From IMG/VR virus record IMGVR_UViG_2651869782_000020: a stretch of 5,148 nt of DNA; one strand, given 5' to 3'. Every line of letters starts with the position of its first letter. Position 1 is the first letter of the stretch. The DNA is from a virus. Lineage: Duplodnaviria > Heunggongvirae > Uroviricota > Caudoviricetes. Below are positions 311 to 5,148 of the stretch, one piece after another. The position numbers were made by a program, and so were the translations under genes. The notes beneath the pieces were generated by a model. The model was not told where the DNA came from. It saw only the letters and a list, made by a program, of their open reading frames with translations, and ran no database searches.

Positions 311-823
311 TCAGCCAAGCCCAAGCGCGGAACGGATACGGTCAGGCACAATGTCCTTGCCGTCCTTCCGGTAGATGTGGTTCAACAGGTCGATTTCCCA
401 CAGCGGGCGATCGTTAACGCTCAGCTTGTAGTAGGTGTTTTTGACAGCGTAAGTGTGTGATGTGGCTTCGCCCTGTTTGGCTTCCCCCATATCAATTTCC
501 GTCACACGTCCGCGCATCTCGATTTCATACAGATCGCTTTCTGCATCGGTGTAGTATTCACCCGCAAAACGCAGCAGCGTGCCGTCAATCGTGCCGCCAT
601 ATTTAAGGAACAGCGCACGAACAGCTCCCCCCATAACAAAACTCGCATCAAGCGCGGAGTCGTCCAGACCGAGATCAATACTTACCGCCCCCATCATGCC
701 ACCACCACGATAGCTGTCGGTTTTGCGCGTCAGTTTGGGCGGCGTGACGGATGTCACTTTACCCACTTCGTTTTCACCATCCACAAACAACGTAAAAAAG
801 CGAAGATGTTTTGGTACAGCCAT
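311..823 (-). CDS. FII: Phage tail tube protein gpFII (P2 FII-like)
   Basis: 170-aa ORF whose sequence (for example PKLTRKTDSYRGGGMMGAVSIDLGLDD and RFAGEYY...EIEMRGRVTEIDMGEAKQGE) follows the P2 FII tail tube family pattern as I recall it. The start codon overlaps the FI stop by one base (TGATG on the minus strand), suggesting translational coupling. A GGGAGG RBS lies inside the FI 3' end. Confidence 0.9.
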   Translation of the reverse strand: MAVPKHLRFFTLFVDGENEVGKVTSVTPPKLTRKTDSYRGGGMMGAVSIDLGLDDSALDASFVMGGAVRALFLKYGGTIDGTLLRFAGEYYTDAESDLYEIEMRGRVTEIDMGEAKQGEATSHTYAVKNTYYKLSVNDRPLWEIDLLNHIYRKDGKDIVPDRIRSALGLG

Positions 824-2007
824 CAGGCACCTCCCAGCACCGCAAATGCGGGACCAAAGAATTCATCAGTAAACGTCTGGTAAAGCTCCATGTCTTCCAG
901 TGGCGGAACGGGCGTATATTTGTAGCGAATACGCACACGCCCCTGACGTAAATCCGTGGTGCCGTTATCCACCACGTCATACCAGCACTCCGCGCCAATC
1001 AGTTTCCCGGCAGTAACCAGCGAATCCAGTTTTGCCCTGATGGCACTGATAACATCCTTCACGTTCGCAGGCGTCAGTGGACTGTCGATGGTTTCAAACT
1101 GCGCTTCCGCAATTGAATCAGCCAGCACCTGTGCGGTTCGGGTATACACCTCAAAGATGTAGGCGTTCGTTTCCGGTGTGCGGTTGCCCCAGAAGCGGAA
1201 CCCGTTGCGACGAATAATGGTCGTGATTTCTTTGTTGTTGAGGCTGTTGGCATCGCTGTCTTCGGCCTGCAACGACCAGAACACATGCCTCGACATCCCC
1301 AGCACATTTTTAACCGGAACGTTGGACAGTGATTTGTGCCACCCCTGCTCATGGTCAATGTACGCACGAAGGCCGCACGCATAGGCAGGCGCGGGGAACG
1401 TTTCGTTTTTGCCACTTTTCGGGTTGTAGGCGATGAAGTCCGGCCATAAGAGCATCACCTCACGTTCGTTGAATTTCTGGCGATAGGTAATCGCCTCAGC
1501 CATCGTGTTACAGCCGTGACATGAGGCATACACAAACGCGCGCAGTTTACCTGCAATCACGCACAGGGATTTTGTTACAGCCTCCGTGTCCAGCTCCGGC
1601 GCGGCCAGAATACGCGGACGGTATCCGATGCTTTCATCCTGCTCTGCAACAAGCAGCGCATACATCCCCGTATAGCTGCCGTCATCCTCAGAACCACCGA
1701 TAACCAGTTGATCCTGCGTCTTTCCGTCTTCTTCTTTGTGTTCAGCCACGCGAACGACGATCACCTTTGTGCTCACCTGGTCTGCGATGGCCTTAAGCGC
1801 ACGATAAAGCGTCCCCGTTGTTCCGCATTTTCCCAGCACGTCATTGACGCGGGTCAGCAATGTGGGCTTGTTCAGCGGGAACAGCTTCGCGTCCGCATCA
1901 TCCGCCGTTGCCACGATACCGATAACGCTGGAATCAACATCGTTAATCGCTGTTACCAGGTCGGTATTTTCCGTAACACGGGCACCATGAAAACGAGTTT
2001 CACTCAT
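823..2007 (-). CDS. FI: Phage contractile tail sheath protein gpFI (P2 FI-like)
   Basis: 394-aa ORF with hallmark sheath segments as I recall them (FPLNKP, KLRAF, WPDF, HEQGWHK(S/T)LSNV, IRRNGFRFWGNRT, YTRTAQV, YTPVPPLE). It lies directly upstream of FII on the same strand. An AAGGGG RBS precedes the ATG at the reverse complement of 2005-2007. Confidence 0.92.
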   Translation of the reverse strand: MSETRFHGARVTENTDLVTAINDVDSSVIGIVATADDADAKLFPLNKPTLLTRVNDVLGKCGTTGTLYRALKAIADQVSTKVIVVRVAEHKEEDGKTQDQLVIGGSEDDGSYTGMYALLVAEQDESIGYRPRILAAPELDTEAVTKSLCVIAGKLRAFVYASCHGCNTMAEAITYRQKFNEREVMLLWPDFIAYNPKSGKNETFPAPAYACGLRAYIDHEQGWHKSLSNVPVKNVLGMSRHVFWSLQAEDSDANSLNNKEITTIIRRNGFRFWGNRTPETNAYIFEVYTRTAQVLADSIAEAQFETIDSPLTPANVKDVISAIRAKLDSLVTAGKLIGAECWYDVVDNGTTDLRQGRVRIRYKYTPVPPLEDMELYQTFTDEFFGPAFAVLGGA

Positions 2008-2164
2008 AGCTTCAGCCCCTTGTATCCGTTAAATGATTCAGCAACAATCATCACCCACCACGCGCGTAATCTCACCCCTGCGCTATTCTCCCGCCACGGC
2101 GACAACAAAAAGCAGTAACCCCCTCCGCACGCACATGCGACCATGCCGCACAGGGAGGGAACAG
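2008..2164. promoter_or_regulatory. Divergent intergenic region between FI (minus) and D (plus); presumed to carry promoters for both
   Basis: 157-bp non-coding gap flanked by two divergently oriented start codons, each with its own RBS. No perfect TGT-N12-ACA late-promoter dyad was found by eye, and no promoter was confidently mapped. Confidence 0.3.
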
Positions 2165-3274
2165 ATGACCGACACCACCATGCAATTGCTCAGTCAGGGC
2201 ACAGACCCCGTGAAAATGCCGGATTTTGATATTCTCGCCGAGGGTAAAACGCTGTCCGGCGTGGCAGAACGCCTGATGAGCCTGTCACTGACCGACAACC
2301 GGGGATTTGAGGCGGACCAGCTCACCATCACGCTGGATGATGCCGATGACCAGTTGCAGCTACCGCCACGGGGCGCGCGTCTGACGGTTCTCATTGGCTG
2401 GAAAGGGGAACCGCTGACAGAAAAAGGCACTTACATTGTTGATGAAATCGCTCACGAAGGACCGCCGGACAGGCTGACTGTTTCAGCCAGAAGCGCAGAT
2501 TTTCGGGATGAATTTAATGTTAAACGTGAGGCGTCCTGGCATGATGTGACCGTTGAACGTGTGGTATCCGCCATCGCTCATCGGTACAGCCTGAAACCGC
2601 AAATCAGCGAAATGCTGATGGATATCGAAATCGACCACGCCGACCAGACTGAAGAAAGCGACATGTCCTTCCTTACGCGCATGGCGGAAATGCTGGGCGC
2701 AATCACCACGGTAAAAAGCGGTAATCTGTTATTCATCATGCCCGGCGGTGGCGTGAACGCACAGGGCCAGCCGTTGCCATCGTTCGCCATCACACGCAGC
2801 AGCGGCGATCGCCATCAGTTCCGCATTGCTGACCGCGAGGCGTATACGGGGGTACGCGCTTACTGGCTTGATCTTAATTACGGGAAAAAGAAAAAAGTCA
2901 GCGTGAAACGCCGCAAACCGCCAAAACCCAAAAAGGAGAAAAGCAGCAGCCGTGAAGGTGATTATATGGAAGGCGCGGAAGGCAATGTGTTTGTGTTACG
3001 CAAGACTTATCAGAACGAGCAGGCAGCAAGACGCGCAGCGGCGGCAAAGTGGCAGCAGCTACAACGCGGAGCCGCATTATTTTCCATCACGCTGGTGCGT
3101 GGACGTGCAGAACTCTACCCCGAAATGCATGGCACGGTAACAGGATTTAAAAGCGAGATTGATAATCAGGACTGGATTATTGCGAAAGCCGAGCACACCA
3201 TTGATAACAGCGGCTTTACCACACAGCTTGAGCTTGAGGCAAAAATCCCGGAATGGATAGCAGAAACAGAGTGA
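2165..3274 (+). CDS. D: Phage late control gene D protein / tail protein gpD (P2 D-like)
   Basis: Long plus-strand ORF. The preferred start is the ATG at 2165 (MTDTTMQLL...), which has a strong GGGAGGG RBS 5 nt upstream; the upstream in-frame ATGs at 2033 and 2135 lack an RBS. Length (369 aa) and sequence character fit the gpD family, and it sits directly upstream of ogr as D does in P2. It contains an unusual Lys-rich tract (KKKKVSVKRRKPPKPKKEK). Confidence 0.85.
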   Translation: MTDTTMQLLSQGTDPVKMPDFDILAEGKTLSGVAERLMSLSLTDNRGFEADQLTITLDDADDQLQLPPRGARLTVLIGWKGEPLTEKGTYIVDEIAHEGPPDRLTVSARSADFRDEFNVKREASWHDVTVERVVSAIAHRYSLKPQISEMLMDIEIDHADQTEESDMSFLTRMAEMLGAITTVKSGNLLFIMPGGGVNAQGQPLPSFAITRSSGDRHQFRIADREAYTGVRAYWLDLNYGKKKKVSVKRRKPPKPKKEKSSSREGDYMEGAEGNVFVLRKTYQNEQAARRAAAAKWQQLQRGAALFSITLVRGRAELYPEMHGTVTGFKSEIDNQDWIIAKAEHTIDNSGFTTQLELEAKIPEWIAETE

Positions 3275-3341
3275 GCAACTTAGACATATTAGCTCAAACT
3301 TAAACTGGCAAGTTTACAGTATAGAATTAAACATAAACGAC

Positions 3342-3370
3342 GGTCCGCTCCGTGTCAGAAGCGGACTTTG
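3342..3370. terminator. Putative bidirectional intrinsic terminator between convergent D and the cargo ORF
   Basis: Perfect 7-bp stem GTCCGCT (3343-3349) / AGCGGAC (3360-3366) with a 10-nt loop, followed on the plus strand by TTTG and on the minus strand by a T-rich run (cgtcgTTTaTgTTTaaTT). It lies between the D stop (3274) and the cargo ORF stop (3395). Confidence 0.35.
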
Positions 3371-3394
3371 TCATCCCTATGTAAGGTTGATTGC

Positions 3395-4417
3395 TTAATA
3401 CGCATTTAATTTAAATTTGTATTTGCCTTCTATGTAATGGATAAATTCAATTATGCTTTTTTCTATCGCATCTAATATATGAATATATCCATCCCGATTT
3501 AAGGTCCTATCCAACTCAAAGTGATGAACTATCCCATGTCTATATTGTATGATTTCAGAAATTCGATTCTCAAGAAAATCAACTGATTTTCCAATTCTTT
3601 TTTTCTTATAAAGAATCGCTCTCACATCTATATCCAGCCACTCTTTATATGCTTTGTTTAGGTGGGTTAAGTTTTGAAAAGTGTAATTTCTTGCAATAAC
3701 ACTTTCTATTGAAATATTTCCTTTCTCTATCTCAAGCAGAATATCAAAATCAACTTTTTGCTTATACGATGTTCTTTTTGCTATTGCGAAAGGATCGTAC
3801 TTTATAAGTATTTGAAAAGCTCTAGAGAAAAAGTATTCAAACATAGCAACCGCAAAAGGTACTAATCCATTATATATAACTCTACTGGGATCCATACATT
3901 GCATGTAATCAAAGTATTCGGATAAACCGCCATCTTCCGGTAGGTTTAATTTAATAGAAGGTTCAGGTAAGGCATGTTTAACAGCGGAAATCTCATGATG
4001 GACATGATTAAATATTGAAGAAATGCCACGACTGATCGGACTACTAGAATCCTTCCATAGAGGAGCGTACCTATTTTTCCCATAATCACCTATAAGTGTT
4101 CCACCAAAAAGACTCCTTGCGCCTTTTAGAACATCATTAAGCATTTTTACATCATGCCAACTAGCGCTATATAAATTACGCACATGCAATGCCCATTTAT
4201 TACCAGATATGTGTAATTCGTCATTTGAAACAGGATATATATCAGCCGAAACTCCATCTGTAGATTTGAAGTCCGTATCATCAAACCAAGAGTAATTCAA
4301 CGTTCCTTGGGGCCATTCCCTCAAATGTTTACACCTTTTAAAACCTAAATTTTCAAGGTAATTTTTAAGTTCGTTTCTAGTTGCTTTTTTAGGGTACAGC
4401 GTTATATCTCTTCCCAT
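3395..4417 (-). CDS. Hypothetical 340-aa cargo protein; candidate abortive-infection/defence protein with a C-terminal R-x4-H (HEPN-like) motif
   Basis: An uninterrupted 341-codon ORF in about 25-30% G+C DNA is very unlikely by chance. AGGTGA RBS lies upstream of the ATG (reverse complement of 4415-4417). The RHGIVHH motif was verified at nt 3521-3541 (reverse complement agacatgggatagttcatcac). No resemblance to P2 structural proteins. Confidence 0.8.
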   Translation of the reverse strand: MGRDITLYPKKATRNELKNYLENLGFKRCKHLREWPQGTLNYSWFDDTDFKSTDGVSADIYPVSNDELHISGNKWALHVRNLYSASWHDVKMLNDVLKGARSLFGGTLIGDYGKNRYAPLWKDSSSPISRGISSIFNHVHHEISAVKHALPEPSIKLNLPEDGGLSEYFDYMQCMDPSRVIYNGLVPFAVAMFEYFFSRAFQILIKYDPFAIAKRTSYKQKVDFDILLEIEKGNISIESVIARNYTFQNLTHLNKAYKEWLDIDVRAILYKKKRIGKSVDFLENRISEIIQYRHGIVHHFELDRTLNRDGYIHILDAIEKSIIEFIHYIEGKYKFKLNAY

Positions 4418-4549
4418 GCTTTATTCACCTGATATACAATATTTTAAATTTTAACTATTATGAACGTATGAATTTTCACATTGGATGTATGGAAGTTCAA
4501 CAACTATTGAAAGTTCAATTTTCACTCTTCGCACAGAGCGAGCTGTTAG

Positions 4550-4578
4550 TTGGAATTAGGGATCGTACAATCTAGAAT
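4550..4578 (+). promoter_or_regulatory. Putative sigma70 promoter for ogr (TTGGAA -35, 17-nt spacer, TAGAAT -10)
   Basis: -35-like TTGGAA at 4550-4555, a 17-nt spacer, and -10-like TAGAAT at 4573-4578, about 30 nt upstream of the ogr ATG. An AAGGGAGG RBS lies at 4596-4603. Confidence 0.35.
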
Positions 4579-4608: not shown

Positions 4609-4869
4609 ATGTTCCGTTGTCCGCTTTGTGGCGCATCTGCCCGTATCCGCACAAGTCGTCCGGAAAATGATTCAAACACCGTGCGGCAAAAGTATTACCA
4701 GTGTAACAATCTGGAATGCGGCGTATGCTTCTCAACACTGGAAGCTTTCCATAAATTCACATCGAAACACGCCTCCGGCGTTCACTCTTCAGAAGGTATC
4801 CCGTGGCATGAGCTACCAGCTTCACACAGGGGAAACAATCAGATGAGTTTGCCTTTACCTCAGAATTAA
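4609..4869 (+). CDS. ogr: Ogr/Delta-family zinc-finger late transcription activator
   Basis: 86-aa ORF beginning MFRCPLCGASARIRTSR, with a C-x2-C ... C-x4-C arrangement (C4, C7, C32, C37), the same Cys4 layout as P2 Ogr (MFHCPLC...CQNVNC, as I recall it). Strong AAGGGAGG RBS. It sits downstream of D as in P2 and 186. Confidence 0.85.
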   Translation: MFRCPLCGASARIRTSRPENDSNTVRQKYYQCNNLECGVCFSTLEAFHKFTSKHASGVHSSEGIPWHELPASHRGNNQMSLPLPQN

Positions 4870-5148
4870 CAAGCAGAATTGCCGGAGTAACAAAAAAGCG
4901 ATAGATTACGCGCGGGTGCCTTTCGGCTGATGGTCGGAGGGAATACCCGAAGGCCAGATGTGGAAAGGCCCCGGAAAACACTTTTGTTTAACCGAGGCCC
5001 TAACCGTCTACCCTAAGCAAGTGAAAGGTTAGCGCCTCTCCGGAAAAGGAGCAAGTGCTTGTATGGGTCCACCACATATTGCAATTTTTATTCTCTTTTA
5101 AAATATATTCCACGGGCGTCATTAGTGCGAGCGCCTTGTGGGGTCTTT

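Follow-up and report, generated by a model that had tools for sequence, protein, structure and literature searches.

We analysed a 5,148-nucleotide stretch of DNA (hereafter the window), calling its genes from a six-frame listing of open reading frames (ORFs) together with Pfam. The window contains homologues of the P2-like (Peduoviridae) tail and late genes FI, FII, E, D and ogr, which depart from the canonical co-directional order, with FI, FII and E on the minus strand and D and ogr on the plus strand. The 5' part of the tail chaperone gene E lies at positions 1–255 on the minus strand, with the start (MKDIDTETRNN...) at 255 and the ORF leaving the left end of the window; it matches the 'tail protein' gene located 3' of FII in phages 500465-2 and P88, and its product is 32% identical to P2 E. 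The tail tube gene FII (311–823, minus strand) gives a full-length match to PF04985 (E = 2e-45) and encodes a protein 42% identical to P2 FII, while the tail sheath gene FI (823–2007, minus strand) matches PF04984, PF22671 and PF17482, with 46% identity to P2 FI. A divergent gap of 157 bp (2008–2164) separates the ATG of FI at 2007 on the minus strand from the ATG of D at 2165 on the plus strand. D (2165–3274, plus strand; PF05954) encodes the baseplate hub or 'late control D' protein of 369 aa, which is 49% identical to P2 D over the full length, and the Shine-Dalgarno sequence GGGAGGG of D can be read at 2153–2159 on the plus strand. The late-gene activator gene ogr is located at 4609–4869 on the plus strand (PF04606, E = 5e-14); its product is 42% identical to P2 Ogr and carries a CX2CX24CX4C zinc finger whose cysteines are residues 4, 7, 32 and 37. 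The head-to-head placement of FI-FII-E and D-ogr across positions 2008–2164 had been described in an earlier sequence-only reading of this DNA, and both the ORFs and the Pfam matches agree with it.

Megablast linked the window to P88-like P2-family phages and prophages of E. coli. The nucleotide identity of the window was 99.9% to E. coli H1, 97.8% to phage 500465-2 (Gemsvirus) and 95% to P88, and in the shared parts it was 93.6–97.9% to P88, P884B11 (Xuanwuvirus), PhiR44_2, Chuche and Citrobacter phage phiSM. The late region of P88 and 500465-2 consists of V, W, J, I, H and G on the plus strand, an invertible fibre segment, a DNA invertase gene on the plus strand, U, T, E', E, FII and FI on the minus strand, and D, ogr and hok on the plus strand. 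Both the high identity and the order U-T-E'-E-FII-FI | D-ogr assign the window to the P88-like clade. P88, 500465-2 and phiSM likewise exhibit E-FII-FI | D-ogr-hok, with an identical gap of 157 bp and the same TTCT-N12-ACAA site within it. The sequence-only reading had also pointed to the absence of T and U between E and D, which is correct for the window; in records with 97.8–99.9% identity these genes follow directly 3' of E on the minus strand, immediately beyond the left end of the window, and are thus not missing.

At the right end, homology to all related phages ends at about position 5060, and the last ~89 bases (5060–5148) are the end of an IS481-family element with an 'integrase core domain' transposase, of which E. 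coli genomes carry up to 38 copies each and which also occurs on many plasmids. Insertion of this element at 5060 is found in the window and is absent from P88, 500465-2 and phiSM. The element abuts the start region of hok/mok. A match to the sok antitoxin RNA (RF01794) was observed at 4914–5065 on the plus strand, with 52.4 bits (under the gathering score of 59; E = 7e-10), marking a sok/hok-like RNA region. In P88-like phages, a hok/sok-type toxin-antitoxin locus comes after ogr, and in the window the hok ORF is displaced by the insertion sequence. In E. coli H1 (NZ_CP010160, 872814–885195), the corresponding element is a prophage remnant between pdxB and flk, composed of a partial integrase gene, IS1A, the end of a tail fibre gene, a glycosyltransferase gene, U to FI, D (annotated as a shortened CDS), a gene for a 340-aa protein, ogr and hok, with the head, lysis, baseplate and early genes gone. 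This particular copy may thus reside in a decayed prophage. Separately, two assemblies labelled as Firmicutes, Vagococcus sp. WN89Y and a Planococcaceae metagenome-assembled genome, contain a D that is 97–98% identical to the E. coli-type D, most likely owing to contamination or mis-binning.

Comparison with the relatives indicated that the ATG at 2165 is the conserved start of D, with GGAGG-like runs located 5–8 nt before the aligned ATG in all of them. In the RefSeq record of 500465-2, D is instead started at the ATG corresponding to 2033, giving a protein of 413 aa whose additional coding sequence (21020–21151 in that record, 2033–2164 in the window) covers the promoter gap; this upstream ATG is not conserved. 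The 43-aa 'hypothetical protein' annotated across the gap in the P88 record is not conserved either, and the same holds for the small ORFs that touch the gap in the window (2004–2144 on the minus strand, 1708–2118 on the plus strand, and the extension of D from 2033), which we rejected as coding sequences. The lengths of the gap differ among relatives by non-multiples of 3, so the gap is not coding.

D and ogr are separated in the window by an AT-rich insert at 3285–4572 (1288 bp), with a GC content of 34% compared with 54% for the rest of the window. The insert is positioned between the stop codon of D and the -10 element of ogr, with TAGA direct repeats flanking it at 3281–3284 and 4573–4576, and ogr retains its own TAGAAT -10 element at 4573–4578. 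This 1.29-kb segment is present in 500465-2 and absent from P88, phiSM and one Salmonella relative. It contains the ORF for the 340-aa protein (3395–4417, minus strand; from the six-frame listing), which has a sub-threshold match to RiboL-PSP-HEPN and, at residue 293, an Rx4H motif (RHGIVH). Homologues with 64–87% identity occur in Pantoea, Proteus, Shewanella, Aeromonas, Pseudomonas and Methylococcaceae, the majority of them being scored as PF18735; searches of PADLOC, PHROGs and NCBIfam returned no match for the protein. The ORF is a candidate single-gene HEPN RNase cargo gene for defence or abortive infection. Other variable cargo was observed among the relatives. A different insert of ~1.45 kb occupies the D/ogr junction of the relative in the assembly labelled Vagococcus sp. 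WN89Y (locus L009, 11095–12546), so this junction seems to be a recurrent site of cargo insertion in the clade. The interval from the tail fibre genes to U, which is the Z/fun slot of P2, is also variable, containing the invertase and fibre shufflon in P88 (13600–16420), a family 9 glycosyltransferase gene in E. coli H1 (locus positions 14298–16325) and a gene for a DUF262 protein in ST16-OXA48phi5.4 (28011–30978).

To place this arrangement against P2, we compared it with the annotated P2 record, in which FI-FII-E-E'-T-U-D-ogr are all co-directional, as the sequence-only reading had stated; U and D overlap there by 1 nt, and the ogr transcript and the F operon both stop at a terminator annotated 3' of ogr. 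Relative to P2, the block from FI to U is flipped and the orientation of D-ogr is unchanged, one of the possibilities that reading had named, so that D (together with ogr in the relatives) forms a separate rightward unit. We then collected loci through relatives of the D protein and scored orientation by tblastn, counting a locus where both genes were present. The order U- T- E- FII- FI- | D+ ogr+ was found in 43/43 informative genome loci. These represent over 20 genera of enterobacteria, among them Salmonella, Edwardsiella, Serratia, Erwinia, Pantoea, Enterobacter, Klebsiella, Kosakonia, Brenneria, Pectobacterium and Symbiopectobacterium. All 79 IMG/VR viral contigs (79/79) likewise have the inverted order, with D identity as low as 60%. 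Six ICTV genera are represented, namely Xuanwuvirus, Gemsvirus, Novemvirus (Enterobacter phage phiT5282H), Reginaelenavirus (Klebsiella phages Kp4860-2 and 3LV2017), Reipivirus (Klebsiella phages Kp4846-1 and ST16-OXA48phi5.4) and Senquatrovirus (Salmonella phage SEN5). The head-to-head order is the conserved arrangement of a large, defined P88-like sublineage. With six genera of the Peduoviridae inverted, the canonical order is a feature of P2 itself and not of the family as now classified.

An assembly artefact, with the FI/D junction as a chimeric join, had been offered as one cause of the unusual order, and apart from the order being unusual relative to P2 nothing speaks for it. The identical junction occurs in 65 E. 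coli genomes covering at least 80% of the window, including complete chromosomes, as well as in sequenced phage genomes, in the 43 loci of other genera and in the 79 IMG/VR contigs, which amounts to more than 120 independent assemblies, and the gap can be aligned end to end across all these sequences. We regard the probability of a chimeric join as negligible. Degradation in this copy or strain was another suggested cause; the closest genome, E. coli H1 (99.9%), is indeed an IS1-truncated remnant without head, baseplate and early genes, and the IS481-family element adjoins the hok/sok locus at 5060. However, FI, FII, D and ogr are intact ORFs in the window, and the order is shared by the whole clade, with D as low as 60% identical, and by intact phages: chemical induction yielded P88, which lyses many strains of E. 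coli, and phiSM has been described as spontaneously active (PMC6456863; PMC5285337). Any decay of this copy is therefore later than the order and unrelated to it, and we consider a local origin of the order very improbable.

The position of a DNA invertase gene directly at the U end of the block in P88-type phages raises the alternative that FI to U is a second invertible segment, flipped in a programmed manner by this neighbouring Gin/Cin/Pin-type enzyme. Such Gin/Cin/Hin/Pin-type segments have flanking crossover repeats and occur in both orientations. By contrast, a single orientation was found in all 122 informative loci and in the phage genomes, no inverted repeats flank the block in P88, where we found only the fibre-shufflon repeats and a terminator hairpin, and many inverted members of the clade have no invertase match nearby. 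We consider programmed inversion very improbable as well. The hairpin in P88 (16377–16418) lies between the convergent invertase and U genes and consists of 18-nt arms with 89% complementarity and a 6-nt loop. Both strands carry T-runs, and the structure probably acts as a two-way terminator at the end of the inverted F operon.

Comparison of the late proteins with their P2 counterparts revealed identities of 26–61%, with 32–49% for the six F-operon proteins, and the P2 F operon holds the same seven tail genes plus ogr, 32–49% identical to those of the window clade. With identities in this range, no foreign module has replaced either FI-U or D, and sequence comparison argues that the arrangement is a flip of the FI-to-U block within one lineage and not a mosaic replacement. 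The canonical order is kept in all checked relatives whose D is at most 52% identical, which comprise three outgroups: P2, Salmonella phage RE-2010 (Felsduovirus) and CP019275. We infer a single old inversion of the FI-to-U block that has become fixed, and its single origin is suggested by the gap in D identity (at least 60% versus at most 52%) rather than by a rooted tree. Rearranged tail operons have been described in other P2-like phages such as Stenotrophomonas phage Smp131, where putative TGT-N12-ACA promoters are placed accordingly and one dyad is given on both strands for PP'/PO' (PMC3931495). In Smp131, by contrast, the V and F operons have exchanged members, the hosts belong to a distant group, and the FI-U inversion is absent.

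With FI and D on opposite strands, D cannot be reached by read-through from the FI promoter, and there is no plus-strand gene upstream that could read into D, in agreement with the earlier proposal that D needs a promoter of its own in 2008–2164. Analysis of this gap identified a predicted Ogr/Delta-type activator dyad, TTCT-N12-ACAA, at 2086–2105 (centre 2095.5), which has one mismatch to TTGT-N12-ACAA. Its core, TCT-N12-ACA at 2087–2104, carries TCT in place of the TGT of the TGT-N12-ACA dyad of Ogr/Delta-dependent late promoters and is the sole site in the gap with at most one mismatch to it; a dyad of this quality was present in 2.5% of shuffled gaps. The sequence-only reading was right that the gap lacks a perfect TGT-N12-ACA, and the whole window lacks one as well. 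This lack carries no meaning, because the annotated activator sites of the P2 promoters PF, PO and PV are also not perfect TGT-N12-ACA. A perfect dyad of another type, GTT-N12-AAC at 2028–2045, is located ~30 nt from the FI ATG within the predicted FI leader and is not conserved outside Xuanwuvirus and Gemsvirus; it is probably a chance occurrence.

In an alignment of 44 unique orthologous gaps, conserved blocks alternate with spacers that vary. Conservation is strongest in the block GACAACAAAA (2101–2110 in the window), and the dyad is completed by a triplet, T[G/C]T, located 12 nt to the left of this block. The ACAA half does not vary in any of the gaps (44/44), 42/44 have T[G/C]T as the left half, and the perfect form TTGT-N12-ACAA occurs in 12/44 of these gaps, which derive from genomes, and in 25/68 of those from IMG/VR, with the most distant members among them. 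The distance from the dyad centre to the FI ATG is 78.5–88.5 nt across the clade (88.5 nt in the window), similar to the 82.5 nt of P2 PF, and the distance to the D ATG is 67.5–71.5 nt in 43/44 gaps (69.5 nt in the window), the remaining outlier having no aligned ATG. The invariant half, TTGT when read towards FI, is distal to FI, as in P2 PF, PO and PV, and the same site read towards D (degenerate half, N12, ACAA) resembles P2 PP. Relatives with the canonical order have a perfect TGT-N12-ACA upstream of FI.

The P/O gap of P88 (154 bp) contains TTCT-N12-ACAAcaaaagc, the same form as TTCT-N12-ACAAcaaaaagc in the FI/D gap. A pattern built from both P88 sites was found in two places only in the 24.6-kb genome, the P/O and FI/D gaps, against 0.05 expected; this figure is indicative, as the pattern was derived from the same data in which it was counted and its rarity is partly circular. 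In Kp4846-1, ST16-OXA48phi5.4 and phiT5282H, the pattern occurs exactly twice, again at the P/O and FI/D gaps. SEN5 has perfect dyads in both gaps, and so does Kp4860-2, with one more perfect dyad 3' of ogr. In six complete genomes, the form of the left half-site (TTCT, GTCT or TTGT) is the same at both gaps, which fits one activator reading both.

No sigma-70 consensus promoter was detected by the promoter scan on either strand of 2008–2164, as expected for activator-dependent late promoters. Promoters of the Ogr/Delta-dependent type need Ogr, and its contact with the alpha subunit of RNA polymerase, for transcription, and have no good -35 or sigma-70 consensus and a weak -10. Across the window, the overall counts of the sigma-70 and terminator scans equalled the shuffled expectation and were uninformative except for the -10 element of ogr. 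On the FI side, the hexamer GATGAT (2047–2052, minus strand), located 46 nt from the dyad centre and aligned with the conserved GATTATCA / GATATTC block of the relatives, is the putative -10-like box of a proposed promoter P_F. On the D side, a conserved GC-rich block with a -10-like hexamer, CGCACGCACATG CGACCAT (2126–2144, plus strand), would belong to a proposed promoter P_D, with GACCAT (2139–2144) also 46 nt from the dyad centre. This block aligns with the strongly conserved CGCGCGC(A/G)TGAAAC(T/C)ATCAG of the relatives and resembles GGGAAACTGATG of P2 PO and GCCATCATG of P88 PO at an equal distance from the dyad. A GC-rich CGCGCG run precedes both -10-like boxes. GATGAT and GACCAT are weak hexamers, and their assignment as -10 elements is suggested by spacing and by analogy with P2.

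The geometry of the gap resembles that of the P2 late promoters. In P2 PF, the -10 element GAAAAT is 47 nt and the annotated start 57.5 nt from the dyad centre, compared with 46 nt for the P_F box of the window. In P2 PP/PO, one annotated activator site serves both promoters, and transcription starts 55.5 nt to either side of it, a figure that refers to starts, while the 46 nt on either side of the dyad in the FI/D gap refer to -10-like boxes. Both regions consist of divergent late operons ~155–175 bp apart with one dyad in the middle of the gap, and the distances from the dyad to the ATGs and to the boxes in the window are compatible with the P2 values. They differ in that the FI/D site is situated between tail genes and its function is predicted, whereas PP/PO lies between packaging (P) and head (O) genes.

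We consider it likely that the window is the right-hand late/tail end of a P88-like (Xuanwuvirus/Gemsvirus-type) P2-family E. coli prophage in which, after an old inversion, the gap contains a shared two-way late promoter. In the proposed mechanism, FI-FII-E-E'-T-U would have been inverted together with their late promoter in the ancestor shared by a large enterobacterial branch of the Peduoviridae, with D-ogr remaining in place. One breakpoint would have been upstream of the PF activator site and the other at the U/D boundary, so that the symmetric Ogr dyad of the F promoter came to lie beside D, and the order would have been fixed since then. A single activator site centred at 2095.5 would serve two divergent, activator-dependent, sigma-70-poor promoters: P_F, firing leftward into FI through U from a predicted start at ~2040 on the minus strand, and P_D, firing rightward into D from a predicted start at ~2151 on the plus strand, which leaves a leader of ~14 nt. 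As the site is symmetric and capable of acting in both directions, as in PP/PO, D could have gained late Ogr-dependent expression from its other face. That Ogr binds 2086–2105, that the two promoters share this site and where transcription starts are predictions from the sequence and its likeness to P2.

The main alternative is that the dyad serves P_F only and that D is transcribed from an Ogr-independent promoter, constitutive or driven by another factor, with the D-side block as that promoter or as a leader. In its favour, the invariant TTGT half has the orientation seen in P2 PF, where FI is the primary client, and many members have a degenerate half (TCT or CCT) on the side that points away from D. 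The D-side block CGCGCGCATGAAACTATCAG shows conservation of its own and could instead serve as a leader or as the site of another regulator. Against this, the plus strand of the gap has no sigma-70 consensus promoter, and the distance from the dyad to D varies by no more than 4 nt among over 20 genera, a constraint that would not be needed for an unrelated promoter. The geometry also matches that of P2 PP/PO, with its single site annotated for the two promoters, and D is a structural late protein needed together with FI-U. We consider this alternative unlikely, although appreciably more probable than the artefact, decay and invertase explanations.

Returning to the shared two-way promoter, its rightward transcript may extend beyond D. 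In most relatives, ogr is located ~40–50 nt after D (44 nt in P88), so P_D would transcribe ogr as well. The inversion may accordingly have created a fifth late unit absent from P2, an Ogr-activated P_D-D-ogr unit sharing the P_F site, with the D/ogr junction then becoming a cargo slot that is occupied here by a HEPN-type gene; we give this extension an even chance. If it is true, ogr would be placed directly behind an Ogr-dependent promoter, forming a tight positive-feedback loop, and the clade would illustrate, in nature, how the symmetry of an activator site allows an operon to be divided and inverted while late control is retained.

The gene order itself is already present in annotated public genomes of classified phages. 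In the searchable literature, we found neither an explicit description of the FI-U inversion nor a mapped promoter in the FI/D gap; what we did find was the late-promoter consensus of P2 in its general form and reports of other P2-like phages with rearrangements. Likewise, no mapped start, Ogr binding or expression data for the FI/D gap of any member of the clade were found there. The sequence-only reading had allowed that its suspicion of a rearranged or faulty junction would fall if the orientation were conserved in a defined sublineage with a documented promoter. The conserved orientation stands in full, and the promoter stands in part, as a conserved Ogr-type site for which we found no published mapping. 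The sole new element is the predicted shared FI/D activator site, which is well supported by the alignments and by the likeness to P2.

These results indicate that P2 and 186 are not a template for all P2-family prophages, as a large and common enterobacterial branch, including P88, phiSM, 3LV2017, SEN4/5, phiT5282H and others, is inverted. Since the FI-U inversion is widespread in this branch, the order should not be flagged as misassembly or decay. For annotation, the clade gains a correct start of D (2165 in the window) and a promoter motif. If a single Ogr dyad drives both tail operons, as in P2 PP/PO, this would explain how the inversion has been tolerated.
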